From Chloroflexaceae bacterium (GTDB lineage: Bacteria > Chloroflexota > Chloroflexia > Chloroflexales > Chloroflexaceae), in the NCBI GenBank assembly GCA_035327325.1, contig DAOLDO010000001.1, positions 1-35,731 of the forward strand: 35,731 nt of DNA, written 5' to 3'. The position numbers were made by a program, and so were the translations under genes. Every line of letters begins with the position of its first letter. The stretch's first letter is position 1. The notes under the pieces are model-generated. The model did no database searches. It saw only the letters and a list, made by a program, of their open reading frames with translations, and was not told the origin of the DNA. Shown piece after piece: positions 6,891-27,569 of this stretch.

Positions 6891-6891
6891 G

Positions 6892-10623: not shown

Positions 10624-10661
10624 TTGAGGCGGGCTTGATCACAGGCTGAGCTCCGGCTGAG
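10624..10661 (-). promoter_or_regulatory. 11-bp-phased pentamer array A upstream of the CopB-like ATPase
   Basis: On the + strand: TTGAG 10624, TTGAT 10635, CTGAG 10646, CTGAG 10657, spaced exactly 11 bp. In gene orientation these read CTCAG, CTCAG, ATCAA, CTCAA. The proximal unit is about 69 nt upstream of ATG 10555. The distal units overlap the last codons and stop of the patatin gene. Confidence 0.5.
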
Positions 10662-11538
10662 TGATCGCGGCGGCGTCAGCAGGGTCAGCCTCGGTGTCGA
10701 GCCGCCAGGCGCGTAGGGCGAGTAGCTCGTCGAGATGGTGAAAGGTGGACAGCTCCCCCGCCCAACGGCCTATGTCCGGGTGCGCCATGTCGAGCAGCGA
10801 CAGCCCGCGCAGCTCGGGGCGTAGAATCAAGGTGGGAACGTGACACGCCAGGCGCTCGTTGGTCTGGGCGCGTAGGATAGCTATAGCCCGCGAGAGGATC
10901 GCCAGGTGCTGCGGCGATTGGAGATGCTTCCACACCCCACGGCGAGGCGCGGCCAGATGAAAAGGCGTGAGCTGCTCGGCGAGTTGCACGGCGATCACGC
11001 GCTGCGCGCCGAGGCGCTCGGCAACGTCAACGGGCATGTTGTTCACCAATCCCCCATCGACGAGCACAGCGCCGCCGTATTGGACTGGAGGGAAGATTCC
11101 TGGTAGCGCGGTCGTCGCGAGCATCGCCGGCACAAGTGGCCCGCTGTCGAGCACCACCTCGCGCCCGCTCACCAGGTCCACCGTTACCACGGCACAGCGG
11201 ATCGGCAGATCGGCGAACGTCCGCTCGCCAAGCAGCTCGACGGTGAGCGCTTCCCGCTTACGGGGGCCGATCAGCCCGGCCCGCAGCGGGTCGGAACTAG
11301 CGATCCGCCGGAGCTGCGTGGCGCGGAAAAAGCGGTCGAGCGTGTCGAGGCTGAGGCCGGCGGCGTACATCACGCCGAGAGCGCCGACCGAGGTGCCCAC
11401 GATGATATCGATGGGTACCCGGAGGGCACGCAGCACGGCGAGCACACCGAGATGGGCTCCACCACGGCCGCCCCCGCCACTCAGCACGAGGCCCAGGCGG
11501 CGTGGTCCTCGCGGTGGCCGGCAAACGGGCTCGATCAT
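10639..11538 (-). CDS. patatin-like phospholipase
   Basis: ORF-track entry 10639..11763 trimmed to ATG 11538, which overlaps the upstream stop (ATGA). Oxyanion motif LSGGGGRGGAHLG, nucleophile elbow GTSVG, and a late DGG motif (LVDGGLVNNMP). Confidence 0.8.
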   Translation of the reverse strand: MIEPVCRPPRGPRRLGLVLSGGGGRGGAHLGVLAVLRALRVPIDIIVGTSVGALGVMYAAGLSLDTLDRFFRATQLRRIASSDPLRAGLIGPRKREALTVELLGERTFADLPIRCAVVTVDLVSGREVVLDSGPLVPAMLATTALPGIFPPVQYGGAVLVDGGLVNNMPVDVAERLGAQRVIAVQLAEQLTPFHLAAPRRGVWKHLQSPQHLAILSRAIAILRAQTNERLACHVPTLILRPELRGLSLLDMAHPDIGRWAGELSTFHHLDELLALRAWRLDTEADPADAAAITQPELSL

Positions 11539-12953
11539 GCCTTGGCCTCCTCCCGGGGCTGACGGTACAGATCCTCGCGGCTGAGCGGTAGGGTAGTCTG
11601 CCCGGTGCCATCCGGTTTGCTCAGGAGCAGTTGCACGATGCCGATTTGCCCACCGGCAAATGCGTGGGCTGATGCAGCCATGTAGAGCCGCCAGACACGG
11701 TACCGCGTCTCCCCGACGAGCAGGCGCGCCACCTCGGAACGCGCCTCGAGCCGGCGCACCCACTGCCGTAACGTCAGGACGTAGTGCTCGCGCAGGCTCT
11801 CGAGGTCGCGCGTCTCCCAGCCGGCGAGCTCGGCCGCTGCAACCATCGTGGCCGGCAGCACCAGCTCGCCGTCGGGGAAGACGTAGCGCTGAATGAAGGT
11901 GCCCTCCCGCCAGAAGGTACGGGCGATCCAGGCGCTCAGGCCGCCTGCAACAGGGGCGCCGAGCACAATTCCATGGTTCAGAAACAGCCCGCCCGGCCGG
12001 GTCAGCCGGTAGGCCTGGGCAAAGTAGGCCGGCAGCTTGGCTTTGCCGACGTGCTCGACCATGCCCACACTGACAACTTTGTCGAAGCGAGCGCCGGCCG
12101 ACAGGTCGCGGTAGTCACGCAGCTCGATCCGACAGCGATCCTCCAATCCGGCCGCCCTGACCTGCGCGCGGGCAAAGCTGGCCTGCGCCTCACTCAGCGT
12201 GATGCCGAGAGCGTGCGCACCGTAGTGCTGGGCAGCGTGGAGCACAAGTCCGCCCCAGCCACAGCCGATATCGAGCAGCCGTTCGCCCGGCTGAAGGCGC
12301 AACTTTCGGCAGAGATAGTCGAGCTTCGCCACCTGCGCGGCCGCGAGATCCTCGGCGCCGGTCGGAAAGTAGGCGCACGAATAGACCATGCGCTGATCTA
12401 GCCAGAGCTGGTAAAAGTCGTTGCTGAGGTTGTAGTGCGCCCGCACTGCCGCAGCGTCGCGGACGCGCGAATGGCGTGGGCCGACCATACAAGGCGCGCT
12501 GGTATTATGGAACTTCACATGTGGCGCAGGGCCATTCGGCAGCATCTGGAGCTGCGCGAGGAGCCGCACGCTCCGCAGCGGTGAGCGGAAGTAGCCGGCC
12601 AGCTCAGCAAGCAGACCGACAGCCGCCTCGACGTCGCCCTCAAGATCGTAGTCGTCGTGCAGGTACGCTTCAGCCAGCCCAAGCTCAGAGGGTGGGTACA
12701 ACATGCGCCGAAGCGCACCGGGGTGGCGCAGGACAAGCGTAAACGCCGGCGCAGCACCCGCGCCCCTCTGATCTCCTGAGCCGTCCCAATAGCGCACCGC
12801 AAAGCCGCGCGCCTCGGGTGGCCCAAACAGCTCGCACAGGATGCGCCTCGTCGAGTGTAGAGGCGTTGCCCGATCGACTTCAGTTGTGCCTGCCTCCTGC
12901 AACCTGAGGTCAGCAGCGGTCGGACTCCGCACCTCGCGTTTCGTCGTATTCAT
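11535..12953 (-). CDS. cfa: cyclopropane-fatty-acyl-phospholipid synthase family SAM methyltransferase
   Basis: Trimmed to ATG 12953 (AGGAG 6 nt upstream); the longer GTG start at 13088 has no RBS. CMAS-family motifs: HYNLSNDFYQLWLD, MVYSCAYF, LLDIGCGWGGL, VSVGMVEHVG. Confidence 0.75.
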   Translation of the reverse strand: MNTTKREVRSPTAADLRLQEAGTTEVDRATPLHSTRRILCELFGPPEARGFAVRYWDGSGDQRGAGAAPAFTLVLRHPGALRRMLYPPSELGLAEAYLHDDYDLEGDVEAAVGLLAELAGYFRSPLRSVRLLAQLQMLPNGPAPHVKFHNTSAPCMVGPRHSRVRDAAAVRAHYNLSNDFYQLWLDQRMVYSCAYFPTGAEDLAAAQVAKLDYLCRKLRLQPGERLLDIGCGWGGLVLHAAQHYGAHALGITLSEAQASFARAQVRAAGLEDRCRIELRDYRDLSAGARFDKVVSVGMVEHVGKAKLPAYFAQAYRLTRPGGLFLNHGIVLGAPVAGGLSAWIARTFWREGTFIQRYVFPDGELVLPATMVAAAELAGWETRDLESLREHYVLTLRQWVRRLEARSEVARLLVGETRYRVWRLYMAASAHAFAGGQIGIVQLLLSKPDGTGQTTLPLSREDLYRQPREEAKA

Positions 12954-13121
12954 GGCCCGCTCCTGACATCGCTCGCCAGGCTTGACACTCTGCAGCGCAG
13001 AGCGCAAGACACTATCGGCTTCGAACTCGCTACAGCAGACGTCTTGCCCCAACGGATCCGGTTGTTCGGCTACGAATCGCCCGGACACGCCGGGTGTGTG
13101 CTTGTAGTGTCGTCGTTTGCC

Positions 13122-13159
13122 CTGAGCGGTCGCTGAGGGTCAGTTGAAGTCCTGCTGAA
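13122..13159 (-). promoter_or_regulatory. 11-bp-phased pentamer array E upstream of cfa-patatin
   Basis: On the + strand: CTGAG 13122, CTGAG 13133, TTGAA 13144, CTGAA 13155, spaced exactly 11 bp. The array is oriented toward the minus-strand cfa gene, 169 nt from ATG 12953. Confidence 0.4.
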
Positions 13160-13309
13160 GGGTGAGTTCGTTTGGTTAGCGCATCACAATGTAGTTGAAC
13201 TGATGACCGTTATAGTGTAGGTGGAGGCTTGCACGACCCGTAATGCCGGCCTGCTATGCTCAAGCACGTGAAACCAGGCGCACAGAATCGCCTGAAGCTG
13301 GAGCAGAGC

Positions 13310-14557
13310 ATGTTTTCGACGCTGCGCGCCCGCTTGTTGGTCAGTGGAGCGGTGACTATTGCGGTCATTTTGGCATTGGCGGCCTTCCTGGCGATTGAGC
13401 GATTTCAAATGAACGCCACGCTGGAACGGCTGACAACCCTTGCCGCTGCGGCTGCACAGGCGCGTGAGCTAAGCCTCTACGCTCGCTCCAGCGCCCACGA
13501 TACGACGGCTCACTTACTTGGACACGCAGACGCGCGTGAGCGTTATCAAGAGCACGAGGCAGCGTTCGATGAGCGTGCGCAACTGCTCCAGGGACTGGCA
13601 GCTAGCGGCATGCTGGACGACCACGTTGGTGAAGAGGTGACCGAAATTGTGGCAACCTACCAGGGATATGATCAGGTTGCCAGAGAGCTTCTTAGCCTCT
13701 CAGCCGGTAATGTGCTTCCGGTATCGACTCGCACTGAGCAGTCGCTCACCACCTTCGAGCAGATGTCCGACACACTCGAGGCCCAATCCCTGGCCCTCTA
13801 TGAGCATATCAATCACGATGTTCAGTCTTTACAAGAACACCTCAACGCGCGTAACCGGCAGATGTTGAGTTTGCTCGCAGGCCTCGCTCTGGTGATCGTC
13901 CTCCTCGTAACCGTAATTCAGGCGATGGTGCTGCGTGCTGTAGGCGCTCCCGTCCAGGCATTGCGGTCCAGTGTCGCGCGATTTACGCGCGGTGAGCATT
14001 CGGCTCGCGCCGATGTCATGCGCCAGGATGAGGTCGGCAGCCTTGCCCTGGCGTTTAACGAGATGGCCGATACGATTGCGCAGCAGAGCGCTGAACTGCG
14101 ACGCCAATATGATGCTGCTGAGGCGGCCCGGCTTGAGGCCGAGACGGCACAGCACCGCGTCGCCGAGCAGCTTGCGCTTATCAGCGAGCAGCAAGGGGTG
14201 ATCAGGGAAATGAGTGTGCCTGTCCTCCCCTTCAGTGCATCTGTCCTTGTGCTACCACTGGTTGGAGCACTTGACACCGCGCGGCTCAGCCTGTTGCAGC
14301 AGCAGGCGCTCCATTCCATCGAGCGGACTTCGGCCCGGCACCTCATTCTTGATGTGACAGGAGTACCTGTCATTGACACACAGGTCGCACAGGGGCTCCT
14401 GCGCGTTGTCCAGGCTGCACGGTTGCTAGGTGCAAAGGTAGCGCTAGCAGGTGTGCGACCTGAAGTAGCTCAGACGATGGTGAGTTTAGGGATTGCGCTG
14501 GAATGGACAGCGACATACGCGTCACTCCAGAGCGCCATTGGGCAGGTGAGCCGTTAA
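13310..14557 (+). CDS. membrane sensor with HAMP and C-terminal STAS (RsbR-like) domain
   Basis: Start moved to ATG 13310 (GGAG 6 nt upstream). TM1, then a helical extracytoplasmic region of about 170 aa, TM2, HAMP (EVGSLALAFNEMADTIAQQ), a coiled coil, then STAS (VLPLVGALDTARLSLLQQQAL...HLILDVTGVPVIDTQVAQGLL...GAKVALAGVRPEVAQTMVSLGI). Confidence 0.75.
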   Translation: MFSTLRARLLVSGAVTIAVILALAAFLAIERFQMNATLERLTTLAAAAAQARELSLYARSSAHDTTAHLLGHADARERYQEHEAAFDERAQLLQGLAASGMLDDHVGEEVTEIVATYQGYDQVARELLSLSAGNVLPVSTRTEQSLTTFEQMSDTLEAQSLALYEHINHDVQSLQEHLNARNRQMLSLLAGLALVIVLLVTVIQAMVLRAVGAPVQALRSSVARFTRGEHSARADVMRQDEVGSLALAFNEMADTIAQQSAELRRQYDAAEAARLEAETAQHRVAEQLALISEQQGVIREMSVPVLPFSASVLVLPLVGALDTARLSLLQQQALHSIERTSARHLILDVTGVPVIDTQVAQGLLRVVQAARLLGAKVALAGVRPEVAQTMVSLGIALEWTATYASLQSAIGQVSR

Positions 14558-14559
14558 CT

Positions 14560-14702
14560 CTGCGCGGAATCGCGTGCACCGTCTCGAAAAGTGCCTCAAG
14601 CTCGCCGGAGCACCAGATCCCGATTCGTACCTCGCGCACTTGACCATGACGGTCGATCAAAAAACTGGTTGGGATTACACTCACGTAATAGGCACGGCTC
14701 AC
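14560..14702 (-). pseudogene. C-terminal remnant of a TlpA/redoxin-like thiol-disulfide oxidoreductase
   Basis: The ORF starting at GTG 14702 (GTGA overlap with the methyltransferase stop) reads AYYVSVIPTSFLIDRHGQVREVRIG...ELEALFETV. This is the typical C-terminal quarter of TlpA/AhpC-TSA redoxins. No CxxC-bearing N-terminal part exists. The frame then runs antisense into the STAS gene. Confidence 0.3.
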
Positions 14703-15328
14703 GGCGCTGCTGCCTCAATCTGCTTGACCACGTCGAGCCAGCGATCCTTAACCTGTAGCCTGGCAAACCCGGCGCGACGCACGTTCTCCACCGTCTCGCG
14801 GTTGATGTTGGCGCCGCTCAGGCGCACGACCAGCGGGTTGAGCAGCCGCCTGGCCCGGCTGAGCAGCGGGCGGTGCGACAGGACATGCTCGAGCAGCAGG
14901 AGCTGGTCGCCCAGGACAAGGACGCGCCGCAACTCACGCAGGCCAAGGATGGGGTCCGGTACCGAGCAGAACACGCACGTTGCGATCACCGTATCGAAGC
15001 TCGCGTCAGGAAACGGCAATGCCTGGACATCGGCCTCGCGCAGGTCAATCATGATCTGCTCGCGTGCTGCGCGCTGGCGGGCCTGCGCGAGCATCCGCGG
15101 TGAGAAGTCGATCGCCGTAACTCCTAGCTCGGGACGGTAGTGGGCCATACCCCTGCCCGTACCCACGCCCACCTCCAGCACGCGCGGTCCGCGGACACGC
15201 CGCCAGAGCTCTGCCCGCCCCGGCTCCAGCATGCGCTCGCTCCCGCGGGTGAGCAGGTCGTAAAAGCGCGCGTTACGGTCGTAGCGGGCTCGGGTTTCGA
15301 GCGTGATGTGGCTGTCGCTGGTATCCAT
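14699..15328 (-). CDS. class I SAM-dependent methyltransferase
   Basis: Motif I VLEVGVGTGRG, post-I acidic residue (TAIDFSPRML) and a Methyltransf_11-like core (FDTVIATCVFCSVPD). It is the last intact gene of the DUF2933 operon. Confidence 0.8.
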   Translation of the reverse strand: MDTSDSHITLETRARYDRNARFYDLLTRGSERMLEPGRAELWRRVRGPRVLEVGVGTGRGMAHYRPELGVTAIDFSPRMLAQARQRAAREQIMIDLREADVQALPFPDASFDTVIATCVFCSVPDPILGLRELRRVLVLGDQLLLLEHVLSHRPLLSRARRLLNPLVVRLSGANINRETVENVRRAGFARLQVKDRWLDVVKQIEAAAP

Positions 15329-15354
15329 ATGAACACCGTCCTTTCATGAGCGGC

Positions 15355-15966
15355 TCAGTTCGGGAGCACGGCCTCATAGCGCTTTGCGAGGAACTCATTA
15401 CGGCAGCCCCGCGAGCAGAAGAAGTAGGTCTGACCATCCTCCACAAAGCTGATCATCCACAAGGAAGTCCCATTAGAGAGGCCAACCACGGTGAAGTCGC
15501 GATCCACAATCTCGACCTGCTCGCCCAGGGCGATGCCGTGGCGATCGGCCAGCACGCGGTCGAGCACGACCTCGTAGCTACCCTGCGGCTCCGCGCCCGC
15601 GGCGAGGCGCCACGGGCCACCGCCCTGCTTGGGGTCGTAGCCGACCAAGTAGACCGGCTGCTTCTTCTCGTGGAGGTCGAGGATCACGAACTGCGAGAGG
15701 ATCGGGATCACGCGGCTCCCGCCCGTGCGCGCTGCGGCCGCGGCGCCCAGCGGCAGCAGCGAGGAGACGCCCAGCAGGTTGCGCACCTCGTCCTGGGCCA
15801 CCACGACTGAGCCGGGCGTGTTGGTGAGGTAGGCCGCGATCTGAACGAACCTCCCGCTGAGGAAGCCGCCCAGGAGCAGAATGAGCATCACCGCAAGGGC
15901 CACGCTCGTGACGCTCAGGCTGAGGCGCGCCCAATCCTGGATCAGGTTACGTCGTGCGAGCGCCAT
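15355..15966 (-). CDS. chimeric ORF: MacB/FtsX-permease N-terminal TM plus periplasmic core domain fused to a half YHS/TRASH motif
   Basis: GAGGGAA RBS. The N-terminus ALARRNLIQDWARLSLSVTSVALAVMLILLLGG and the ...VVLDRVLADRHGIALGEQVEIVDRDFTVVGLS region are typical of MacB_PCD. No FtsX TM bundle follows. Instead the ORF ends in EDGQTYFFCSRGCRNEFLAKRYEA, which is the C-terminal half of a YHS/TRASH domain. Confidence 0.6.
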   Translation of the reverse strand: MALARRNLIQDWARLSLSVTSVALAVMLILLLGGFLSGRFVQIAAYLTNTPGSVVVAQDEVRNLLGVSSLLPLGAAAAARTGGSRVIPILSQFVILDLHEKKQPVYLVGYDPKQGGGPWRLAAGAEPQGSYEVVLDRVLADRHGIALGEQVEIVDRDFTVVGLSNGTSLWMISFVEDGQTYFFCSRGCRNEFLAKRYEAVLPN

Positions 15967-15999
15967 AGTGGTTCCCTCAGCATTTCCAGACCATGCGGG

Positions 16000-16665: not shown

Positions 16666-16701
16666 TGTGTTAACCTCTATCAGGTAAGCTCTCGCGACCG
16701 C

Positions 16702-16953
16702 CTAGTGGCGGTGCTGGCTATCACCGTTCTGCTGATCCGGAGCGCGGCCGTGGCCCCCGTGGCCGCCGTGCATAAACAGATGGAGGAGCGGGCACAGGAG
16801 CAGTAGCGCGTACGGCAGGTAGCCCCAGAGATGTGCCGTGTGCTCGGTGACGAGATAAAAGCCGGCGATGGCGAGAAAGGCGAGCAGGGCGAGCCCTGCC
16901 GGTGAGCGCAAGAAGCGCCCGAGGCCGCCCGCCGACGAATGATCGCTGTGCAT
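16702..16953 (-). CDS. DUF2933-family small membrane protein with His/Gly tail
   Basis: GAGGAGAA RBS. The sequence LVTEHTAHLWGYLPYALLLLCPLLHLFMHGGHGGHG matches my recollection of the DUF2933 signature (EH.AH...LP..LLL.CPL.H.FMHGGHGGH). Confidence 0.75.
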   Translation of the reverse strand: MHSDHSSAGGLGRFLRSPAGLALLAFLAIAGFYLVTEHTAHLWGYLPYALLLLCPLLHLFMHGGHGGHGRAPDQQNGDSQHRH

Positions 16954-16990
16954 ACTGTTTCTCCTCGCGCCAATGTAGCGCTATGTTTGT

Positions 16991-17007
16991 CCCGATGCAT
17001 CATCGGG
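16991..17007. promoter_or_regulatory. perfect 7-3-7 palindrome CCCGATG-CAT-CATCGGG
   Basis: Arms 16991-16997 and 17001-17007 are exact reverse complements. The palindrome lies between the DUF2933 start codon (38 nt away) and pentamer array C-left. Confidence 0.35.
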
Positions 17008-17014
17008 CACCCCC

Positions 17015-17052
17015 CTGAGGCTCCGCTGAGGCTGCTCTTAAGGCTCCCTGAA
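17015..17052 (-). promoter_or_regulatory. 11-bp-phased pentamer array C-left upstream of the DUF2933 operon
   Basis: On the + strand: CTGAG 17015, CTGAG 17026, CTTAA 17037, CTGAA 17048. The extended units are CTGAGGCT, CTGAGGCT, CTTAAGGCT and CTGAATCT. The proximal unit is 62 nt from ATG 16953. Confidence 0.5.
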
Positions 17053-17068
17053 TCTGCCTCTGCCGGCA

Positions 17069-17095
17069 TTCAGCCGCGGCTCAGGCAGGCCTCAG
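17069..17095 (+). promoter_or_regulatory. 11-bp-phased pentamer array C-right upstream of the ABC1 kinase gene
   Basis: TTCAG 17069, CTCAG 17080, CTCAG 17091 on the + strand. The proximal unit is 44 nt from ATG 17139. A TGGAAT -10-like hexamer sits at 17103-17108. Confidence 0.5.
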
Positions 17096-17138
17096 TCGGC
17101 CGTGGAATGCTGCTGGCAACACGTCTCAAGGAGGTTCT

Positions 17139-18818
17139 ATGTCGTCAACACAGGAGCCAGCTGCGGTCAATGCCGCTGCACGCTCACGGCAGATTGCCGA
17201 AGTCCTCGCCCGCCACGGTCTTGGATATCTCGTCAACGTCTTCGGCCTGGAGCGCTATGTGCCGTTTCACCGGGGCCTGCTCGGCCACGCCCCTCGCGAC
17301 ACCCCGTACACACCGCCCGAGCATCTCCGTCTCGCGATCGAGGAGCTTGGCGCGACCTTCGCCAAGCTCGGCCAGTTGCTCTCGACCAGGGCCGACCTGC
17401 TCCCGCCAGCCTATCAGCGCGAGCTCGCCCTGCTCCAGGATCAGGTTCCCAGCGTGTCAGGGGATGCCATTGTCGCTGTGGTCGAGGTGGAGCTCGGCGG
17501 CCCTCTGGCGGGCCATTTCGCCACGTTTGAGCGGGAGCCGCTGGCTGCCGCTTCGATCGGACAGGCCCACGCGGCGACGCTACCAGACGGAACAGAGGTG
17601 GTGGTCAAGGTGCGCCGACCGGGCGTCGTCGCCCAGGTCGAAGCCGACCTCACCTTGCTGCGGGGCCTCGCCCAGACCGCACAGCGGCGCTGGTCGGCCG
17701 CCGAGCAGTACGACCTGGTCGCCCTTGCCGACGAGTTCGCGCGCACGATCCGCACCGAGCTTGACTACACCCAGGAGGCGCGCACGGTCGAGCGCTTCGC
17801 AACGAACTTCTCCACCAACCCGAACATCCATATCCCACGGGCCTTCTGGTCTCATTCGACTGACCGAGTACTCACACTGGAGCGTATCAGCGGGCTCAAG
17901 GTCACCGACATCGCCGCCCTCGACGCCGCGGGCATCGACCGCCGCGCGCTGGCGCGGCGGGCCACGGACGCAATCCTGCAGATGATCTTCGAGCACGGCC
18001 TCTTCCACGCCGATCCCCACCCCGGCAACCTCTTTATCGAGCCCGACGGGCGGATCGGGTTGATCGACTTCGGCATGGTCGGGACGGTCAGCGAGTCCGC
18101 CCGCGACGCCCTGGCGGCCGTCATGCTGGCGGTGCTGAGCCGCGACTACGAGCAACTCGTCGAGGCGCTGCTCGCCCTGGGCTTTGCGCGTCAGCGGGTC
18201 GATCGGCGGGCTCTGCGCGCTGATCTGGAGCGGCTGCTCACCCCGTACTACGGGCGTCCGATCGGCGAGATTGCCCTCGGGCCGCTGCTCGAGGCCGCCT
18301 TCGCGACGATCCGCACCCACCGGCTCCAGCTGCCGGCAGACCTGGCCCTGCTGCTGAAGACGCTGATTATGAGCGAGGGCATGGGCGCGCAACTCGACCC
18401 GCATTTCCGGCTCGCCGAGGCGATCGCACCCTACGCCCAGCGGCTGCTGCAGCAGCGCTACGCGCCCCTGCGTATAGCGCGCGAGTTGGCGTCGGCCGGC
18501 AGTGGAATGGCCAGGCTCGGCCTGGAGCTCCCGGCGCAGCTCCGCCAGATCGTCGCTGACCTCGAGCGCGGGGGACTGCAGGTCGGCTTGCGCCCAGAGG
18601 GCGTCGAGCCGATCCTGCAGCGCCTCGAACGGCTGGCGAATCGGCTCGTGCTCGGCATACTGGCCGCCGCCTTTATCGTCGGCCTGGCTGTGCTGCTGGC
18701 GGTCTTTCAACCCGCAGGGATCGAGCGCTGGGCCGGCGCGCTGTTCGCCTTCGGCTTTGCCGCTGCCCTGCTGCTGGGGATCGTGCTCGCCTGGAGCATC
18801 CTGCGCGGTGGGCGGTAG
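17139..18818 (+). CDS. ABC1/UbiB-family atypical kinase
   Basis: AAGGAGG RBS. Motifs: AAASIGQAHAATLPDGTEVVVKVRRPG, HADPHPGNLFI and IGLIDFGMVG. Two C-terminal TM helices. Confidence 0.85.
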   Translation: MSSTQEPAAVNAAARSRQIAEVLARHGLGYLVNVFGLERYVPFHRGLLGHAPRDTPYTPPEHLRLAIEELGATFAKLGQLLSTRADLLPPAYQRELALLQDQVPSVSGDAIVAVVEVELGGPLAGHFATFEREPLAAASIGQAHAATLPDGTEVVVKVRRPGVVAQVEADLTLLRGLAQTAQRRWSAAEQYDLVALADEFARTIRTELDYTQEARTVERFATNFSTNPNIHIPRAFWSHSTDRVLTLERISGLKVTDIAALDAAGIDRRALARRATDAILQMIFEHGLFHADPHPGNLFIEPDGRIGLIDFGMVGTVSESARDALAAVMLAVLSRDYEQLVEALLALGFARQRVDRRALRADLERLLTPYYGRPIGEIALGPLLEAAFATIRTHRLQLPADLALLLKTLIMSEGMGAQLDPHFRLAEAIAPYAQRLLQQRYAPLRIARELASAGSGMARLGLELPAQLRQIVADLERGGLQVGLRPEGVEPILQRLERLANRLVLGILAAAFIVGLAVLLAVFQPAGIERWAGALFAFGFAAALLLGIVLAWSILRGGR

Positions 18819-19695: not shown

Positions 19696-19730
19696 AGAGC
19701 TGCTTGTCTTGTGGTAAAACAAGCAGCTCT
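19696..19730 (-). terminator. stem-loop downstream of the copA-cupredoxin operon
   Basis: Perfect 12-bp inverted repeat AGAGCTGCTTGT (19696-19707) / ACAAGCAGCTCT (19719-19730) with an 11-nt loop. It lies 36 nt past the cupredoxin stop. On the - strand the stem is followed only by TTCGTG, a weak U-tract. Confidence 0.4.
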
Positions 19731-19765
19731 GTATGAAGTGGCACGCTCTCCAAATCGCAGCTCTC

Positions 19766-20143
19766 TCACTCGACGATCAGCTTGCCGCGCAGCATGCCCA
19801 TCTGGCACTGGAACTCGTACTCACCGGGGGTGTCCGGCAGGAACTCCACCGGCACCGTCTCGCCCTCGGGCAGCTGCGCGCTCTTCTTGAAGTCGGGCAG
19901 CAGCACCATCTCGGAGCAGGCCGACGACTCGGCCCGCACGAAGTTGAGCCGCACCGGCTTGCCGCGCTCCACGACGATCACATCGGGTGTGTAGCCGCCC
20001 TTCACCAGCACCATCAACTCCTGATAGCCGCCGGCGCTGCGCGTGGCGCGCACGCCGGGCTTCTTCACCAGCCAGAAGAACCAGACAACCAGAGCGATGG
20101 CCGCGAGGCCGCCGACGATCACCGCAATCTTATCGGGGGACAT
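19766..20143 (-). CDS. membrane-anchored cupredoxin-like (Cupredoxin_1) protein
   Basis: AAGGAG RBS and an N-terminal TM anchor. A small beta domain carries SSACSEMVLLPDF and GEYEFQCQMGMLRGKLIVE (Cys/Met ligand pattern). It sits in the usual position immediately downstream of a CopA gene. Confidence 0.7.
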   Translation of the reverse strand: MSPDKIAVIVGGLAAIALVVWFFWLVKKPGVRATRSAGGYQELMVLVKGGYTPDVIVVERGKPVRLNFVRAESSACSEMVLLPDFKKSAQLPEGETVPVEFLPDTPGEYEFQCQMGMLRGKLIVE

Positions 20144-20167
20144 GGCGTTACTCCTTCATTGCATGGA

Positions 20168-20188
20168 GGGCGCGAGAGGAACGCGCCC
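20168..20188 (-). other. GC-rich intercistronic hairpin between copA and the cupredoxin gene
   Basis: GGGCGCG (20168-20174) / CGCGCCC (20182-20188) form a 7-bp stem with a 7-nt loop. No U-tract follows, so it is not an obvious intrinsic terminator. Confidence 0.3.
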
Positions 20189-20201
20189 CTATGTACTCAT
20201 C

Positions 20202-22877
20202 CTAGACTCGAGGCTTCCAGCGCTTCAGCCGGTTAGCATTGCTGATCACGGTCACGCTGCTGAACGACATGGCCAGGGCGGCCAGCAGCGGCGAGAGTAG
20301 CAGCCCAGTGAAGGGGTAGAGCACGCCCAGGGCGACCGGCAGGCCGAGGGTGTTGTAGATGAAGGCCCCGAAAAGGTTCTGGTAGACGTTGGCCATCGTC
20401 GCCCGGCTGATCTGGATGGCGGTAACCACTCCGGTCAGGCTCCCCTTGATCAGGGTGATGTCAGCCGCCTCGATCGCCACATCGGTGCCCGTGCCAATCG
20501 CCAGGCCCACGTCGGCCTGGGCCAGGGCCGGCGCGTCGTTGATCCCATCGCCCACCATCGCGACCTTCTTGCCTTCGAGTTGGAGCCGCTGCACGTTGAG
20601 CGCCTTGTCCTGGGGTAACACCTCGGCCAGCACCCGGTCCACCCCCACCTGCCGCGCGATCGCCTTCGCGGTGCGCTCGTTGTCGCCAGTGATCATCACC
20701 ACCTCCAGGCCCAGCCGCTTCATCGCAGCGATGGCGGCCTGCGAGTCCGCCTTCACCGTGTCGGCCACGGCGACGATGCCGGCGGCCCGCCCGTCGAGGA
20801 TCACAAACATTGGCGTCTTGCCGTCGTCGGCCAGCCGCTGCGCCTCGGCCTCCAGGCGGCCCGGGTCGATCCCCGCCCGCTCGAGCAGCTTGCGATTGCC
20901 GATCTGCAGCTCGCGCCCATCCACGGTGGCAATCACGCCATGGCCGGGGACGGCCTCGAAGCCGGCGAGTGTGCCCGCGGCTAGCCCGCGCGCCTCGGCC
21001 CCCTCGACGATCGCCTGGGCCAGTGGGTGCTCGGAGGCCCGCTCGACGGTGGCGGCCAGGCGCAGCACCTCGTGCTCGTCGTAGCCCTCGAGCAGGACGA
21101 TGTCGGTGAGGGCCGGCTTGCCCTCGGTGATCGTGCCGGTCTTGTCCAGCACCACGGCGTTGAGCTTTGCCGCAGTCTGCAGCGCGTCGCCCGAGCGGAT
21201 GAGGATGCCGTGCTGGGCGCCTAACCCGACGCCCGTGGTCAGGCTCATCGGCGTGGCCATGCCCAGCGCGCAGGGGCAGGCGATGATCAGCGTCGTCACC
21301 GCGACGATCAGGGCGTAGGTGAGGGCCGGGGCCGGGCCGAAGACGTACCAGACCACGAAGCCCACGATGGCCAGGATCATCACCGCCGGGGTGAAGTAGG
21401 CCGAGACCCGATCAACAACCCGCTGGATAGGCACCTTGCTGCCCTGGGCGTCCTGCACCAGCCGGATAATGTTGGCCAGGGCAGTGTCCTTGCCGACCCT
21501 GGTGGCGCGGAAGACGAAGGCGCCGGTCTTGTTGATCGTGGCGCCAATCACCTCGTCATCCATCTTCTTCGACACGGGCAGCGACTCGCCGGTGATCATG
21601 CTCTCGTCCACCGCCGACTGGCCCTCGACCACCACGCCGTCCACCGGGATCTTCTCACCAGGGCGCACCACGATCAAGTCGCCGACCAGCACCTCCTCGA
21701 CCGGGATGTCCTGCTCCTGGCCGCCCCGACGCACCCGGGCGGTGCGGGGCTGGAGCCCGATCAGCTTCTTGATCGCCTCGGAGGTACGCCCCTTGGCCTT
21801 GATCTCGAGGGCCAGGCCGAGGACCACCAGGGCGATGACCACGACGGTGACGTCGTAGTAGACGTCGGTCATCGCCTCGTCGGGGAAGAGCTGGGGAAAG
21901 AACAGGGCGATGGTGGAGTAGAGCCAGGCCACGCTGGTGCCCAGGGCGATCAACGTGTGCATGTTCGCTGAGCGGTGCTTGAGCCCTTCCCACATGCCGA
22001 CGAAGAACTGACTGCCGGAGTAGACCAGCACGGCCAGGCTAGCGAGGCCCATCACGAACCAGGTCCACCAGAGGGCCTCGCTCCCGCGGGGAAGCCAGTC
22101 GCGCAGGCCGGGGATCAGGTAGGGGTAGGAGAGGACCATGGTCGGGACGCCGACGGCGGCGCCGAACCACCACTTGCGCATCAGCGAGCGATACTCGACG
22201 GCGGTCGCCTCAGCCTCGCGGTCCTGCTCAGGCGCGCTGGCCTCGGCGGCACGGGCGGCCTTGTAGGGGCCGGCGTGCTCCACCGCGCGGGTCAGCAGCC
22301 CCAGGTCGCCGATGACCGGGGCGTAGACGACGCGCACCTCGTTGGAGGCAGCGCTCATGGTCGCGTCGAGGACGCCGGGCACGGCCTTGAGCGCGTCCTC
22401 GATCCGGGCGACGCACTCAGCGCAGTAGAGGCCGCTCACCTTGAGGCGCAGGTTCTGGTCGGCCGGGCGGAAGCCGGCCGCGCGCACAGCGCCGAGCAGG
22501 GCCGCGACGCTCGTCTGTGCCGGGTCGTACTCGATAATAAGTTGCCGGCCTTTGACGTTCGCATTCACGCGCGTCACCCCCGGCACCAGGCCGACGGCGC
22601 GCTCCAGTGCCGGGGCGCCGGCCCGCTCGAGTTCGGCGAGCGGTAGCACGAGACGGGCCGGAGCGGCTCCGCCGGGGGGAACGCCCGTCGTTGGCGATGC
22701 AGGCGCGAGGTAGTGGGCCGGGTTGCGGTCAAAGGTGGCCGCGCAGTCGTTCGAGCAGAAGTGGAGGACGAGGCCGTCAATGGTGCGCGTTGCCGCGGCT
22801 TGCTCGGGGGCAAACTCCATGCCGCAGACCGGGTCACGCAGGCTCGTAGGTGTAGGTACAGATGTAGATGCCGCCAT
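20202..22877 (-). CDS. copA: copper-translocating P1B-1 ATPase with N-terminal TRASH/YHS domain and two HMA folds
   Basis: Trimmed to ATG 22877 (AAGGAAAGG upstream). TRASH/YHS domain: DPVCGMEF...[19 protein letters not shown]. The first HMA-like fold has no CxxC; the second has GLYCAECV. Motifs: [42 protein letters not shown] and AMSFSS. Confidence 0.9.
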
Positions 22878-22956
22878 CAGATTGCCGCCTTTCCTTGGAG
22901 GGTGGTCGTGCGGCAGAGGTGAGCCCTGCCGCCTGACGACAGCGTAGATGGCGGCG

Positions 22957-22994
22957 CTGAGTCCGGGCTGAGTCGTCACTGATAAGAGGCTTAG
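22957..22994 (-). promoter_or_regulatory. 11-bp-phased pentamer array B upstream of copA
   Basis: On the + strand: CTGAG 22957, CTGAG 22968, CTGAT 22979, CTTAG 22990. GCTGAGTC is repeated exactly (22956-22963 and 22967-22974). The proximal unit is 80 nt from ATG 22877. Confidence 0.5.
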
Positions 22995-23078
22995 GGGTAG
23001 GCGCCCACGAGTACGCGGCACAACCAGACCGCGCTGGCCGTCGGGCCAACGGGGTGCAGCACGGCGAGCATGGTGAGG

Positions 23079-23702
23079 CTACCGCACGTCGGGCACGCCG
23101 TTCCCGCCCGTGCAGGTCGCTCCTGGCTCCGGCGTCTGGGGGCCCTGCTGGTATTTGGCTACGAACTGGGCGAGGCGCACATCGGCGGGGTCGTCGACGG
23201 CAAGCTGCAGCCCCCAGGCCGTGGCAACGACCGGCGACGTGATCCGCTCGTGGGGTGCAAGCAGGACGTAGGGGCGGCCGCGGGCGAGCCGTCGCAGCTG
23301 CTCAACCTGGTCCGCCGCAAGATCGGGCCGGTAGGCCAGCCAGACGGCGCCGTGCTCGAGCGAATGCACAGCCAACTCGTCGATCACAGGTTTGCTATAC
23401 ATGCCGCAGTTCTGCCAGGCCGGGCTGTGGGTTCCACCGGCGGGAGGGATTTGCTCGTAGGCGACAGGCGCAGCCAGATGCTCCGGCGCCAGGGACGGCA
23501 GGGTGACCACGCCGTCGATCACCTCTGGTACTGCCACGTCCGGCGCACGGGCCGGGCGCAGGACCAGCGTTGCCAGGACGGCGCCGAGCACACCGACGGC
23601 GGCCATGGCGGCAATGATCCGCCAGGGGCGGCGCGACTCGGCAGGAGCCGCACGGCCGCGGCGCCGTCGAGAAGATGGTTGTTGTGAGGTGGCTCCGGAC
23701 AT
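23079..23702 (-). CDS. DUF3105-family protein, membrane anchored
   Basis: Start moved to ATG 23702 (AAGGAGAA 5 nt upstream); the listed GTG at 23720 would include this RBS. TM anchor, then PPAGGTHSPAWQNCGMY...AVHSLEHGAVWLAYRPDL...TAWG, the core I recall for DUF3105. Confidence 0.75.
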   Translation of the reverse strand: MSGATSQQPSSRRRRGRAAPAESRRPWRIIAAMAAVGVLGAVLATLVLRPARAPDVAVPEVIDGVVTLPSLAPEHLAAPVAYEQIPPAGGTHSPAWQNCGMYSKPVIDELAVHSLEHGAVWLAYRPDLAADQVEQLRRLARGRPYVLLAPHERITSPVVATAWGLQLAVDDPADVRLAQFVAKYQQGPQTPEPGATCTGGNGVPDVR

Positions 23703-23910
23703 CTTTGTTCTCCTTAACACTAGCGCCCGCCCCTCGTGCCTGGCCGTACCAGGATGCTGTGTTCATAGCAGACGATTACAACCATCGTCAAACCGAGCGC
23801 TTTTGTGTCCTCTGCTGCCCAGACATGTGCGCCAGATACCACAACTTTGCGTGATTAGGTACATCCAGCGACCTTTATTTCACGCGATTCGCCCACTCTT
23901 GCCAACAACA

Positions 23911-23939
23911 TTGCGCCTAGACCAGGCCAGTGTTAGGAT
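23911..23939 (+). promoter_or_regulatory. candidate sigma70-type promoter for the cytochrome c / DUF3105 pair
   Basis: TTGCGC (23911-23916), a 17-bp spacer ending in TGT, then TAGGAT (23934-23939), about 30 nt upstream of ATG 23973. It sits in the most AT-rich intergenic stretch of the window. This is a pattern match only. Confidence 0.25.
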
Positions 23940-23972
23940 ACAGCGACTCAACCGGCTCGAGCAGAGGTAGCT

Positions 23973-24431
23973 ATGCGCGGGTTTGTGATTGGTTTCGGCG
24001 TCATCCTCGTGGTCGGCCTGATTGCGCTCGCGGTCGCCCGCAGCGGCGAGGGCTCCGGCAGCCGTGCGAACCCCAACGACACGCGGTTGGTCGCGCAAGG
24101 CCGGATCGTCTATGGCCAGTACTGCGCCTCGTGCCACGGCGCCACCCTCGAGGGCCAGCCGAACTGGCAGGACGAGCTCCCGGAGGGCGGCCGGCTGGCG
24201 CCGCCCCACGATGCGAGCGGCCACACCTGGCACCACGCCGACGCGCTGCTCTTCGAGATCGTGCAAAAGGGCCCTGAGGCCAACCCGCTGCCGGGCTATG
24301 TCTACCGCATGCCCGCGTTTGGCGGCACGCTCAACGATGACGAGATCTGGGCCGTGCTAGCCTATATCAAGAGTACATGGCCGCCCGATATCCTGGCAGC
24401 CCAAGAAGAGGTTAACACGCAATCCCGTTAA
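23973..24431 (+). CDS. membrane-anchored class I c-type cytochrome
   Basis: N-terminal TM anchor. One heme-binding CxxCH (YCASCHG). A distal Met is available in the YRMPAFGG context. Confidence 0.8.
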   Translation: MRGFVIGFGVILVVGLIALAVARSGEGSGSRANPNDTRLVAQGRIVYGQYCASCHGATLEGQPNWQDELPEGGRLAPPHDASGHTWHHADALLFEIVQKGPEANPLPGYVYRMPAFGGTLNDDEIWAVLAYIKSTWPPDILAAQEEVNTQSR

Positions 24432-24448
24432 CGGGGAGGGATGATTCA

Positions 24449-25078
24449 GTGAGTTCTCGATCACGCCGTACACCAGCGGCGCGCGCAAAACGCCCTCGCG
24501 GCGGCCAAACCGCTCCGGCGACACCCTCGCCCACCCGAACGCTCAAAACTCCTCTGCCCAAGCCGCGTCGCCGACGGAAGCCGACTGACTTCCTGCTCCT
24601 GGGGATGGCGCTGTTCGTTGCGACGGTTGGCGGCCTGCTGATCTACCGCGGCGTCGTACGCGCAACCACCGGCGAGGGTGTTGCCGTGCTGACCTCCAAC
24701 CACGTCGGTGCGGACGCACAGCCGGTATATAACTCGAATCCGCCGACCTCCGGCGACCACGTGACGAGCGAGGCGCCGTGGGGTATCTCGGCATCACCCT
24801 TGCCCGACATTGCGCTCGTGCACAATCTCGAGCATGGCGGCATTGTGCTGCACTACCGCCCGGATCTCGATGAGGCCCAGCGCCAGCAGCTCGAGGCCAT
24901 TGCCCGCGAACTCCTCCAGCGCAACCGGAAGGTTGTGCTTGCACCGCGCCCGGAAAACGAGAACCCGATCACGGCGACCGCCTGGGGACGCATCCTCCGC
25001 CTCCAGACCGTCGACCCCGATGCGATCAGGGGCTTCTTCAGCGCTCACATCAATCAGGGGCCGGAGCGCGTGTCGTAG
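24449..25078 (+). CDS. DUF3105-family protein, membrane anchored (second paralogue)
   Basis: GTG start with GGGGAGGG 8 nt upstream. Basic Pro-rich N-terminus, TM anchor, then PPTSGDHV...LVHNLEHGGIVLHYRPDL...TAWG. This is the same core as the protein at 23079..23702. Confidence 0.75.
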   Translation: MSSRSRRTPAARAKRPRGGQTAPATPSPTRTLKTPLPKPRRRRKPTDFLLLGMALFVATVGGLLIYRGVVRATTGEGVAVLTSNHVGADAQPVYNSNPPTSGDHVTSEAPWGISASPLPDIALVHNLEHGGIVLHYRPDLDEAQRQQLEAIARELLQRNRKVVLAPRPENENPITATAWGRILRLQTVDPDAIRGFFSAHINQGPERVS

Positions 25079-25091
25079 CACTGCCTGACCT

Positions 25092-25244
25092 TTAGCTGCG
25101 CCGGCGATGTTCGGGCCGGTGGCGCTCCCAGCGCGGCTGTCGACAGCAGGAGACCTTCGGGCGCGCCAGCAGCATGGCGCCGGCGATGAGCACAAACATC
25201 GCGGCGACAATGTGATCGCTGTGGGCGAGGATGAGATCCACCAT
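25092..25244 (-). CDS. possible 50-aa single-TM peptide (below the ORF-track cutoff)
   Basis: Hand translation gives MVDLILAHSDHIVAAMFVLIAGAMLLARPKVSCCRQPRWERHRPEHRRRS. AGGGGA lies 6 nt upstream, and the ORF starts 15 nt downstream of the methyltransferase stop. There is no homology support. Confidence 0.2.
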   Translation of the reverse strand: MVDLILAHSDHIVAAMFVLIAGAMLLARPKVSCCRQPRWERHRPEHRRRS

Positions 25245-25259
25245 ACCTGTTCCCCTGGC

Positions 25260-25850
25260 TTAACGGCGCACAGCACGACCGATGACTGCCCATGGTCCCA
25301 ACTGGTACCAGGCCTGCACCTGGAAGTCGTGCGCCTCAAGGGCGGCTCGAAACTCCTCGGCCGTAAACTGGGTCTGGAGGGGATGGTCGAACAACACGGA
25401 CACGGGCCACGCGGTGGTAAAGCCGCGGAGCAGGTCCTCGAAGTAGAAGACGCCGCCCGGCCGCAGGACGCGCGCGACCTCGCCGAGAGCGTCGCGCCAG
25501 GGTGGGATGTGGTGGAGGATGGCGTACTCGACCACGGCGTCGAAGCTGCCGTCCGGCGCGCTGATCGCGGTTGCGTCGCCAACGTACGCCGCGACACCCC
25601 AACCGCCGGACGCAACGCGGGACCGGGCCAGCGCGATCATCGCCGGGTCGAGGTCAAAGCCGACCGCGCTCGCTGCACCCAAGGAGGCGAGGATCTCGAG
25701 ACCGACCCCCCGGCCACATCCAACCTCGAGCACGCGCTCCCCACGCAGCCCGTTCCGACCGCCCAACAGCAGCGGCGTCTCGACCCACCGTTGGGCGGCG
25801 GCCCGCAGCGGGTTGTTGACGACAGCGAACTCCAGCGCATTCAGCTTCAC
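25260..25850 (-). CDS. class I SAM-dependent methyltransferase
   Basis: GTG start with AAGAGG 7 nt upstream, 20 nt downstream of the HlyD stop. Motif I VLEVGCGRGVG, then GFDLDPAMI and FDAVVEYAILHHI. Confidence 0.8.
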   Translation of the reverse strand: MKLNALEFAVVNNPLRAAAQRWVETPLLLGGRNGLRGERVLEVGCGRGVGLEILASLGAASAVGFDLDPAMIALARSRVASGGWGVAAYVGDATAISAPDGSFDAVVEYAILHHIPPWRDALGEVARVLRPGGVFYFEDLLRGFTTAWPVSVLFDHPLQTQFTAEEFRAALEAHDFQVQAWYQLGPWAVIGRAVRR

Positions 25851-25870
25851 AACGCTACCTCTTGCGGTTG

Positions 25871-27370
25871 TCAGTTAAGAGAACTTGCGTTCAACAAAGC
25901 CGTCATGTTCCAGCGCAAGCGTGGATCGAGTTGCTCCAGGGAGGCCACTACTGTGTAGACAACATCGCCCTGACGCTCTCCACCAAGCGGTTTGATCTGG
26001 ATGATCTTGCCCGGCAACTGTAGCTCGGGCAGTGCGTCAAATGTGATCGTCACAGAATCGCCCTCGCGCAGTTTGACGACATCTAGTTCGGTCAGGTCAT
26101 CGGTCTCAATTTTCCAGTTGCTCAAATCGGCGATCACAATCGCCGCTGTGGCTGGACCAGCCAGAGCTCCAATATCGATGTTCATCTGGGCCACTGTGCC
26201 CTCAATGGGTGCGTGGAGCGTTGCCTGATCGAGCTCAAGTTGAGCTTGATCAAGGGCGACCTGAGCGGCATCGATCGCAACCTGGGCCGCTATCAGATCG
26301 ACTGTTCGTGGGGGGGCAGCTATTTGATCCCGCGCTGCCTCGGCTTGAGCTACGCCGGCTACAGCTACATCGAGTTGGGTAGTGCGAGCAGGGCCACGCA
26401 AGCGGGCTACGTTCGCCTCAGCGGCAGCTACTTGCGCTCTAGCGGCAGCTGCCCGGTCATCATCGGGCGGTGCAACAAGTTGATCGCGCCTAGCTTGTGC
26501 ATCGCGCACCTGGGCCTCAGCAGCAGCGATGCCCTCTACCTCGGCCTGGCGTGCCTGATCCCAGGCAACCTGAGCCTGCTCCATAAGCCGTTGCCTATCC
26601 TGGACCGCCCGCTCGGCCTCAGATTCGGCGTCGATAGCTGTCTGAGGCAGATCGCCGGGCAGTTTCTCAAGCTCCTGGTTCTCCCAGTAAATTCGGCTGT
26701 ATCCGTCCTGGGCGTTGCGTAGATCGTTAGCGGCCAGCTCCAGTTGGAGTTGAGCTGTGGTCTTCGCCGCCGACAGCTCATCGCGCCGCAGCGAGAGGTT
26801 CGCCTGGGCCTGGTCGAGCACAGCCTGAGCCTGCGTGAGCTCGGTGTCCTTCGGTCCGTTAAGCAGCCTGGCTAGAACTGCTTTTGCCTCAATCAGTTGA
26901 GCTTCCGCGGCAGTAAGATCAGGGCTCGTTACCGTAGCCACCGCCTGAGCCTGGTTCGCGCGGGCGGTGCTTACCGCAGCCTCGGCCGCCGCAAGGGCCT
27001 CAGGTGAGACGCCTACGGCCAGCTGATTGTAGCGGGCTTGGGCCTGCTCATAGTTCACCCTGGCCTGCGCAACCTTGAGCTCGAGCATTCGTGTATCAAG
27101 GCGTGCAAGAGGCTGGCCGACTTCGACACGTTCTCCCTCCGCAACCAGGATTGCGGCAACAGTGCCGGGGGTGAGAAATGAGAGCGTCACATCAACTGCC
27201 GGAAGCACTTTAGCTTCGGCAACTACCCCTTGTGTCCTCGTAGGGGCAGACGAAACACTCGTTGGCGCTTCCGCTCCAAGTGGATCCGAACTACGCTCAC
27301 GGAACAGGAAGGCGGAGACTCCGCCTCCAACGAGGACAATAATAAGCGCGGGCAATAGTAGCCTCCACAT
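25871..27370 (-). CDS. HlyD/MacA-family periplasmic adaptor (membrane fusion protein) with long coiled coil
   Basis: AAGGAG RBS and an N-terminal TM anchor. Lipoyl-like hairpin halves (VEVGQPLARLD ... LHAPIEGTVAQ) flank a long Ala/Gln/Leu-rich coiled coil, estimated at about 250 aa. A C-terminal beta domain follows (GDSVTITFDALP...GKIIQIKP). Confidence 0.85.
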   Translation of the reverse strand: MWRLLLPALIIVLVGGGVSAFLFRERSSDPLGAEAPTSVSSAPTRTQGVVAEAKVLPAVDVTLSFLTPGTVAAILVAEGERVEVGQPLARLDTRMLELKVAQARVNYEQAQARYNQLAVGVSPEALAAAEAAVSTARANQAQAVATVTSPDLTAAEAQLIEAKAVLARLLNGPKDTELTQAQAVLDQAQANLSLRRDELSAAKTTAQLQLELAANDLRNAQDGYSRIYWENQELEKLPGDLPQTAIDAESEAERAVQDRQRLMEQAQVAWDQARQAEVEGIAAAEAQVRDAQARRDQLVAPPDDDRAAAARAQVAAAEANVARLRGPARTTQLDVAVAGVAQAEAARDQIAAPPRTVDLIAAQVAIDAAQVALDQAQLELDQATLHAPIEGTVAQMNIDIGALAGPATAAIVIADLSNWKIETDDLTELDVVKLREGDSVTITFDALPELQLPGKIIQIKPLGGERQGDVVYTVVASLEQLDPRLRWNMTALLNASSLN

Positions 27371-27474
27371 GTGCTGCTCCTTTTCGTGGGCTAGAGGAGA
27401 ACGCTACGTTCCCCGCGACCGCTGGCCGAAACCAGGCGTGCCTTCCTGTTGGAAAGCGAGCTTAGCTGCCGGCG

Positions 27475-27512
27475 CTGAGTCCCTGCTGAGTATGGACTGA
27501 GCGGTCTCTGAA
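27475..27512 (-). promoter_or_regulatory. 11-bp-phased pentamer array D-left upstream of the HlyD-methyltransferase operon
   Basis: On the + strand: CTGAG 27475, 27486 and 27497, then CTGAA 27508. The proximal unit with its flank, CGGCGCTGAGTCC (27470-27482), is identical over 13 nt to the copA array (22952-22964). Confidence 0.5.
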
Positions 27513-27531
27513 GAATGAGCGCCGGATATTC

Positions 27532-27569
27532 CTCAGACGCGGTTAAGGTGCGACTCAGTTGAGCCTCAG
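27532..27569 (+). promoter_or_regulatory. 11-bp-phased pentamer array D-right upstream of the ABC permease/ATPase/FAAL/PKS operon
   Basis: CTCAG 27532, TTAAG 27543, CTCAG 27554, CTCAG 27565 on the + strand. The proximal unit is 65 nt from ATG 27634. Confidence 0.5.

Follow-up and report, generated by a model that had tools for sequence, protein, structure and literature searches.

What kind of site is formed by short, evenly phased repeats that precede copper and envelope genes in a Chloroflexota genome, and which protein reads them? The question is raised by a stretch of 35,731 nucleotides from an uncultured Chloroflexaceae bacterium (GenBank assembly GCA_035327325.1, contig DAOLDO010000001.1, positions 1 to 35,731 of the forward strand), hereafter called the window, in which arrays of CTCAG-type pentamers, spaced 11 bp start to start, stand upstream of a series of operons. 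The original prediction, made by reading the letters alone, described seven arrays and proposed that they are tandem OmpR/PhoB-family sites that define a specific regulon. This proposal finds support in the period, the head-to-tail arrangement of the units, their register with a putative -10 element, their conservation and their linkage to a family of regulators. On this sequence evidence, we regard it as probable that the arrays are tandem sites of one OmpR/PhoB-family regulator, a relative of PhoP and PrrA present in this lineage, which would activate a copper and envelope regulon by a class II mechanism. In what follows, coordinates without a locus prefix are window positions, L-numbers are fetched comparison loci, and the operons behind the arrays are those assigned from Pfam scans and public gene calls.

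The inventory of arrays proved accurate in most respects. All 27 pentamers initially listed lie at the coordinates and have the sequences reported for them, the seven arrays are all in place, and each is oriented toward its downstream gene. The number of exact CTCAG units had been given as 15 of 27 and comes to 16 upon recounting, and an eighth array (F), at 30806-30843, had been overlooked. The eight arrays and their putative targets are the following:

10624-10661, minus strand: array A, with units CTCAG, CTCAG, ATCAA and CTCAA; -10-like CATGCT at 10608-10613, whole element 10608..10661; targets, the CopB-like P1B ATPase (8147-10555) and possibly also orf68 and EamA; conserved in L004.
13122-13159, minus strand: array E, with units TTCAG, TTCAA, CTCAG and CTCAG; -10-like GACACT at 13106-13111, whole element 13106..13159; targets, cyclopropane fatty acid (CFA) synthase (11535-12953) and patatin (10639-11538).
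17015-17052, minus strand: array C-left, with units TTCAG, TTAAG, CTCAG and CTCAG; -10-like GATGAT at 16999-17004, whole element 16999..17052; target, the operon of DUF2933 (16702-16953), ICMT-like, MacB_PCD/YHS and methyltransferase genes; conserved in L004 and L005.
17058-17095, plus strand: array C-right, with units CTCTG, TTCAG, CTCAG and CTCAG; -10-like AATGCT at 17106-17111, whole element 17058..17111; target, the ABC1/UbiB kinase (17139-18818); position and -10 conserved in L005.
22957-22994, minus strand: array B, with units CTAAG, ATCAG, CTCAG and CTCAG; -10-like TACGCT at 22941-22946, whole element 22941..22994; targets, CopA with YHS and HMA domains (20202-22877) and probably also cupredoxin (19766-20143) and PAP2; conserved in L004/L137.
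27475-27512, minus strand: array D-left, with units TTCAG and then three times CTCAG; -10-like TAAGCT at 27459-27464, whole element 27459..27512; targets, the HlyD-type fusion protein (25871-27370) and a methyltransferase (25260-25850).
27532-27569, plus strand: array D-right, with units CTCAG, TTAAG, CTCAG and CTCAG; -10-like CATTGT at 27580-27585, whole element 27532..27585; targets, the MacB/FtsX permease (27634-30018) and the ABC ATPase (30055-30861).
30806-30843, plus strand: array F, with units CTAAG and then three times CTCAG; -10-like AAGACT at 30854-30859, whole element 30806..30859; targets, from an internal promoter, a fatty acyl-AMP ligase (FAAL, 30905-32674) and a polyketide synthase (PKS, 32675 to the window end).

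Each of the eight arrays consists of four units of the (C/T)T(C/A)AG type, at an exact period of 11 bp and in a single orientation; the fourth unit of C-right is an additional, degenerate CTCTG at 17058. The two promoter-proximal units are CTCAG in most arrays, while the distal units are weaker (TTCAG, TTAAG, CTAAG or ATCAG), and position 6 of the unit favours C or G, giving a unit of roughly (A/C)CTCAG(C/G). The claim that the phasing exceeds chance was confirmed, both by dinucleotide-preserving shuffles of the window and by the lack of matches at other periods. Exact CTCAG/CTGAG pairs lying within 40 bp of each other are spaced by 11 bp ten times and by any other distance zero to two times in the window. 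A search of the window for three consecutive [CT]T[CA]A[GA] units finds 11 overlapping matches at period 11 and none at any other period from 6 to 24. In the shuffles, the mean number of YTMAR triplets at 11 bp is 0.00 (11 observed), and CTCAG-N6-CTCAG, observed 10 times, occurs on average 0.15 times and at most twice.

The arrays are also held in a fixed relation to a promoter element. A -10-like hexamer, xAxxxT, begins exactly 10 bp past the last pentamer in all eight window arrays, and the end of the hexamer lies 27-152 nt from the start codon. Over 23 arrays that were not selected on the hexamer (those of the window, L145, L005, L142, L132-134 and L150), xAxxxT is present at offset 48 in 23 of 23, other offsets showing it at a rate of about 1 in 34. 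No -35 box was found at the arrays, the expected region matching TTGACA in just 1-3 of 6 positions. Counted from the predicted start site, the unit centres would fall near -58, -47, -36 and -25, so that the array would stand in for the missing -35 element; together with the fixed -10 register, this four-unit position matches a class II activator site of the pho-box type. The arrays thus display the traits of OmpR/PhoB tandem sites, namely repeats one helical turn apart, a conserved core with free spacers, a fixed promoter register and a winged-helix regulator associated by linkage only. Since an Rfam scan of the window returned no match, no riboswitch or leader accounts for the upstream regions.

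Two arrays are embedded in coding sequence: array A overlaps the stop codon of the patatin gene, and array F falls within the 3' end of the open reading frame (ORF) for the ABC ATPase, 45 nt separating its -10 hexamer from the FAAL start codon. The original prediction had taken the absence of arrays upstream of PAP2 and EamA as a sign of regulon specificity. It is true that no array stands directly upstream of these genes, but this says little about whether they belong to the regulon: PAP2, behind copA, and EamA, behind the CopB-like ATPase, lie on the same strand as those genes and may share their transcripts, started at arrays B and A, respectively. Near array E, a membrane HAMP-STAS protein is encoded divergently from the CFA synthase gene (13256-14557, plus strand), and no array faces its gene; it could be an anti-anti-sigma-type component of a partner-switching system, unrelated to the regulon.

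It had been anticipated that real sites would be conserved upstream of orthologous genes in relatives, and arrays are indeed present in L004 and L005. A scan of a genome collection with the ABC1 kinase yielded these two true relatives, 'Chloroflexi bacterium OHK40' (L004), with an ABC1 protein 95% identical to the window's, and a second metagenome-assembled genome (L005), at 77%, as well as six distant loci that served as controls. These unrelated control loci (L006-L011, about 110 kb) contain zero arrays. In ten orthologous array pairs, 184 of 200 pentamer columns are identical (92%), compared with 167 of 250 spacer and pre-10 columns (67%; Fisher p = 5e-11 for pentamers versus spacers), and 53 of the 60 columns of the -10 hexamer are identical (88%).

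A pattern scan of metagenome contigs extended the occurrence of the arrays. Among the matches listed, most are trivial 11-bp microsatellites with identical spacers and about 15 of 120 loci are informative; of 18 listed matches with variable spacers, 11 carry xAxxxT at offset 48. The informative loci comprise these 11 matches and two, L022 and L062, chosen by eye. Arrays were found before the genes for a CopA that carries a TRASH/YHS domain (L091), for DUF2933 and ICMT-like proteins (L022 and L123) and for an HMA protein (L017), other arrays among the matches listed standing before genes for small secreted proteins. Perfect 11-bp microsatellites that contain CTCAG are frequent in many unrelated metagenome contigs (L012-L131 scan) and swamp a naive motif search, true arrays being separated from them by variable spacers and by xAxxxT at offset 48.

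Which protein would bind the arrays? The most likely candidate, as far as gene order and homology can tell, is encoded outside the window: a relative of M. tuberculosis PhoP/PrrA whose gene belongs to an array-preceded operon of DUF2933, response regulator and histidine kinase genes. Its recognition helix is NVVEVYVKQLRQK (core NVVEVYVKQ). This candidate and a homologue from outside the phylum are located as follows:

L145:2760-3440: candidate regulator of the lineage, contig k141_121832, sample ERZ27240676.
L148, CP132508, 931634-952308: locus of the homologue from Thermaerobacter composti, a cultured Bacillota species.

The sample that contains the candidate also yielded one of the window's contigs. 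Close homologues of the regulator encoded in L005 were traced to OHK40 (L137), L145 and a farmland relative (L142), with a shared gene order: DsbD_TM and cupredoxin genes on the minus strand, a back-to-back pair of arrays and, on the plus strand, a DUF2933-like His-rich ORF of 79 aa, the regulator and the kinase. Two further arrays at these loci precede a third P1B ATPase and an HMA-like protein, which, added to the promoters of the window, brings the lineage regulon to at least 12 promoters. An array precedes the regulator operon in L145/L146, in L137-L141 (OHK40 type) and in L142/L143, an arrangement typical of positive autoregulation. A regulator-kinase pair in L150 likewise has an array immediately next to it. 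L005 encodes a regulator 52% identical to that of a sister branch typified by L048, along with a kinase that can be aligned from end to end, and the pair lies between the ABC1 array and an array fronting a multicopper oxidase. Genes for a PKS, a thioesterase and a phosphopantetheinyl transferase precede the regulator locus in L138, L140 and L145; these show no nucleotide overlap with the PKS fragment of the window.

The sister branch is a large family of L048 regulator homologues, 75-90% identical, assigned to Chloroflexota by NCBI. Its regulator is 52% identical to that of the lineage and has the helix NVLEVY[VI]GYLRKK. A four-unit array stands directly upstream of the regulator-kinase operon, facing it, at every fetched locus of this branch (L132, L133 and L134-136), and the two metagenome arrays found before an OmpR-family regulator gene (L048 and L109) belong here as well. 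In the regulator promoters of L133 (9874-9950) and L134 (9849-9925), the in-register hexamer (CACGAT/CACAAT) is followed, 13 bp further downstream, by a perfect TATAAT. The label 'MprA' given to this branch by JGI is a transfer of KEGG Orthology (KO) terms and does not denote orthology, no NCBIfam equivalog model applying to it; more generally, no regulator attains an equivalog cut-off in NCBIfam. Assignment to the heavy-metal CopR/CusR/CzcR subfamily (TIGR01387) was considered and set aside, the L005 and L048 regulators scoring 214 and 207 bits, below the cut-off of 279.

In two places, the first gene of an array-preceded operon encodes a small DUF2933-type membrane protein: in the window (16702-16953, minus strand) and in L145 (2385-2624, plus strand), the L145 copy having a His-rich tail, HGGHGGGGNDQGHRH. 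As one of the two is the regulator-kinase operon, such a peptide may have an accessory sensor or metal-binding role.

Other explanations of the arrays have been considered alongside this one. The original prediction proposed to test the window's own OmpR-family regulator (3291-4013, with its kinase at 4026-5156), which would then control the adjoining copper island; the gene does encode an OmpR-type protein, located beside DUF305 and copper ATPase genes and 6.6 kb from array A. This regulator is probably not the binder, given its helix class and its array-less surroundings: no array is found in 1-10000, the upstream region of its own operon included, and its helix, HVVDAHIANLRKK (HVVDAHI), is of the PhoB/MtrA type, whereas the array-linked branches have NV[VL]EVYV. 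Its identity to the array-linked regulators is only 41-46%, the kinases align in their catalytic core only, and the pair groups with the array-less second regulator and kinase of L134 (49% and 41% identity, respectively), all of which makes its control of the arrays unlikely. Beside the window's two-component genes lie two small membrane ORFs (1741-2073 and 5266-5492, both plus strand), one with a CPCH motif and a resemblance to small metal-transport proteins and the other with a SHOCT-like C-terminus, RGEISREEYLQVVETLR.

Alternatively, the same kind of regulator could use the arrays as operators, occupying -60 to -23 and blocking RNA polymerase until a signal brings de-repression, or the arrays could be read by another tandem-repeat binder, such as a Streptomyces antibiotic regulatory protein (SARP) linked to the PKS cluster. 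The overlap of the arrays with the core promoter is in keeping with operators, while the presence of a PKS cluster among the targets is in keeping with a SARP, and SARPs, too, recognize repeats phased at 11 bp that lie just before the -10 element. Nevertheless, promoters that lack a -35 box and have weak -10 hexamers bear the usual mark of activator dependence, and the geometry fits a pho box. Neither the window nor the related loci revealed a SARP/BTAD protein, and the arrays track regulator-kinase operons and not PKS genes. Both possibilities are therefore considered improbable. As for the notion that no protein is involved, and that the arrays are chance occurrences, microsatellite-like 11-bp repeats or a structural promoter element of bent DNA, it could draw on the metagenome scan, where plain 11-bp repeats with identical spacers make up most of the matches listed. 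In the window, however, spacers vary, both inside single arrays and from one array to another, whereas pentamers are preserved, shuffles expect 0.00 occurrences, and orientation, four-unit length and -10 offset are constant, with none in the about 110 kb of control loci. Shuffles, the contrast between pentamer and spacer conservation, and the -10 offset effectively refute this notion, to which we give next to no credence.

Activation by a lineage PhoP/PrrA relative thus appears to be the best explanation, and several points that weigh against it are to be noted. Array A is reversed, its strong units being distal instead of proximal, and the -10 hexamers and transcription starts are themselves predictions. 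The L005 regulator gene has no array directly upstream, the nearest being that before the preceding ABC1 gene. That the L145 regulator and the window belong to the same genome is deduced from the shared sample and from synteny in OHK40, which is 90-95% identical. The regulator of Thermaerobacter composti, 70% identical and with the helix NVLEVYVRQLRQK, has no CTCAG arrays within 20 kb, so the association of arrays with this regulator may be confined to Chloroflexota. Finally, no obvious metal site was seen in the sensor domains, so that copper as the signal is proposed from the content of the regulon.

With these points in mind, a kinase would sense copper or copper-linked envelope damage and would phosphorylate the OmpR/PhoB-family regulator, two dimers of which, i.e., four head-to-tail winged-helix domains, would fill the four units of an array. 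The bound regulator would in turn recruit RNA polymerase carrying the housekeeping sigma factor to the weak -10 hexamer. Binding and activation are what we infer from the arrangement of the sites, and, to judge from the genes of the regulon, copper or the envelope stress that it induces is the probable signal. On the copper side, the targets comprise three P1B ATPases, cupredoxin-DsbD, an HMA protein and DUF2933/YHS proteins, with a multicopper oxidase in a relative; on the envelope and lipid side, they comprise a MacB-type exporter, CFA synthase-patatin, the ABC1 kinase and FAAL-PKS. The regulon would thereby couple copper export and handling with envelope and lipid functions.

The content of the regulon differs between close relatives. 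OHK40 lacks a 3.1-kb segment that carries the CFA synthase gene, array E and the HAMP-STAS gene (window 11552-14703 versus L004 5086-5132), and it also lacks the block from D-left/D-right through the FtsX, ABC and FAAL genes to the PKS, in place of which a different gene, of 457 aa, adjoins the DsbD, cupredoxin and regulator operon genes. Array-bearing modules thus seem to come and go as cassettes. It is tempting to speculate, and we do so tentatively, that a PhoP/MprA-like system with a His-rich DUF2933 co-sensor runs a modular Chloroflexota regulon for copper efflux and membrane remodelling, which modules join as CTCAG-array cassettes. The remodelling outputs could then, just as speculatively, be cyclopropanation, a patatin lipase, a FAAL-PKS-made lipid and the MacB exporter.

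Knowledge of cis-regulation in Chloroflexota is sparse, and the arrays offer an easily scanned motif, i.e., four (C/T)T(C/A)AG at 11 bp with a -10 hexamer after 10 bp. They also provide a named candidate regulator, together with a regulon in which copper ATPases are joined by lipid-modifying enzymes and a polyketide cluster, and they point to a probable stress role for poorly understood families, such as DUF2933, ICMT-like, ABC1 and the neighbours of DUF3105. Moreover, the model predicts an inducer of a silent FAAL-PKS cluster, and the branches supply a natural series of recognition-helix and motif variants to be set beside the solved PhoP-DNA complex. The motif is real, conserved and cleanly defined, and its candidate regulator is well supported, in a kind of system that is thoroughly known and in which very close motif relatives exist. 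As the mechanism is a textbook one, the value lies in annotation and experimental leverage and not in a new principle. Searches of the literature returned neither this motif nor this regulon for Chloroflexota. The original prediction knew of no described CTCAG-N6 box, which holds for the exact form, of which no description was found, and not for its near relatives, the M. tuberculosis PhoP site and the C. glutamicum MprA motif.

In the pho box of E. coli PhoB, repeats one turn apart take the place of the -35 element and stop about 10 bp short of the -10 element, and the two-component operon is autoregulated. The arrays share with it the replacement of the -35 element, the distance to the -10 element and the link to a two-component operon, presumably autoregulated here too; they differ from PhoB boxes in that the latter have a CTGTCAT-type repeat, a VDVHI-type helix, two units per box and a response to phosphate. 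The GlnR and PhoP boxes of Streptomyces are multi-unit 11-nt arrays with short cores and free spacers, at which two or more dimers bind per promoter. Their architecture is thus that of the arrays described here, with other cores (GTnAC/GaAAC and GTTCACC) and with nitrogen and phosphate regulons. The M. tuberculosis MprA box consists of two 8-bp repeats and a 3-bp spacer, which again makes an 11-bp period.

In C. glutamicum, MprA recognizes the motif TKTTAAGAAM, present as TTTTCAGCAA at htrA, and is positively autoregulated (PMC12113857). Its TTAAG/TTCAG core equals the weaker units of the arrays, and it is from this motif and from the layout of the M. tuberculosis box that the resemblance to MprA is drawn. 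The MprA regulon of actinobacteria comprises sigE, sigB and HtrA proteases and no copper ATPases. C. glutamicum CopRS is a copper-responsive OmpR-family system that binds an 11-bp-period direct repeat, TGAAGATTTnnTGAAGATTT, in a divergent intergenic region, from where it switches on its own operon along with genes for a multicopper oxidase and a copper ATPase (PMC3140484). It differs in its unrelated repeat sequence, in its one genomic site, versus at least 12 here, and in its two units instead of four.

Among PDB entries, the lineage regulator is matched best by M. tuberculosis PhoP, a match that carries no claim of orthology. On TCACAGC-N4-TCACAGC, PhoP forms a tandem dimer; it extends cooperatively to trimers and tetramers on longer repeats and contacts bases through N212, V213, E215, S216, Y217 and Y220 (PMC4832192). 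Its site (PDB 5ED4) likewise has an 11-bp period and head-to-tail units. The arrays were nevertheless rejected as PhoP boxes proper: the spacing is the same, but the core is (A/C)CTCAG(C/G) and not TCACAGC. CACAG and CTCAG are one base apart, at the second core position, and four of the six contact residues are kept in the lineage regulator (N, V, E and Y), S216 being replaced by V and Y220 by Q; the serine-to-valine change in the helix may account for the A-to-T change in the core. Whereas the PhoP regulon concerns virulence lipids, the one described here concerns copper and the envelope, and its sites have four units and keep a constant distance to the -10 hexamer.

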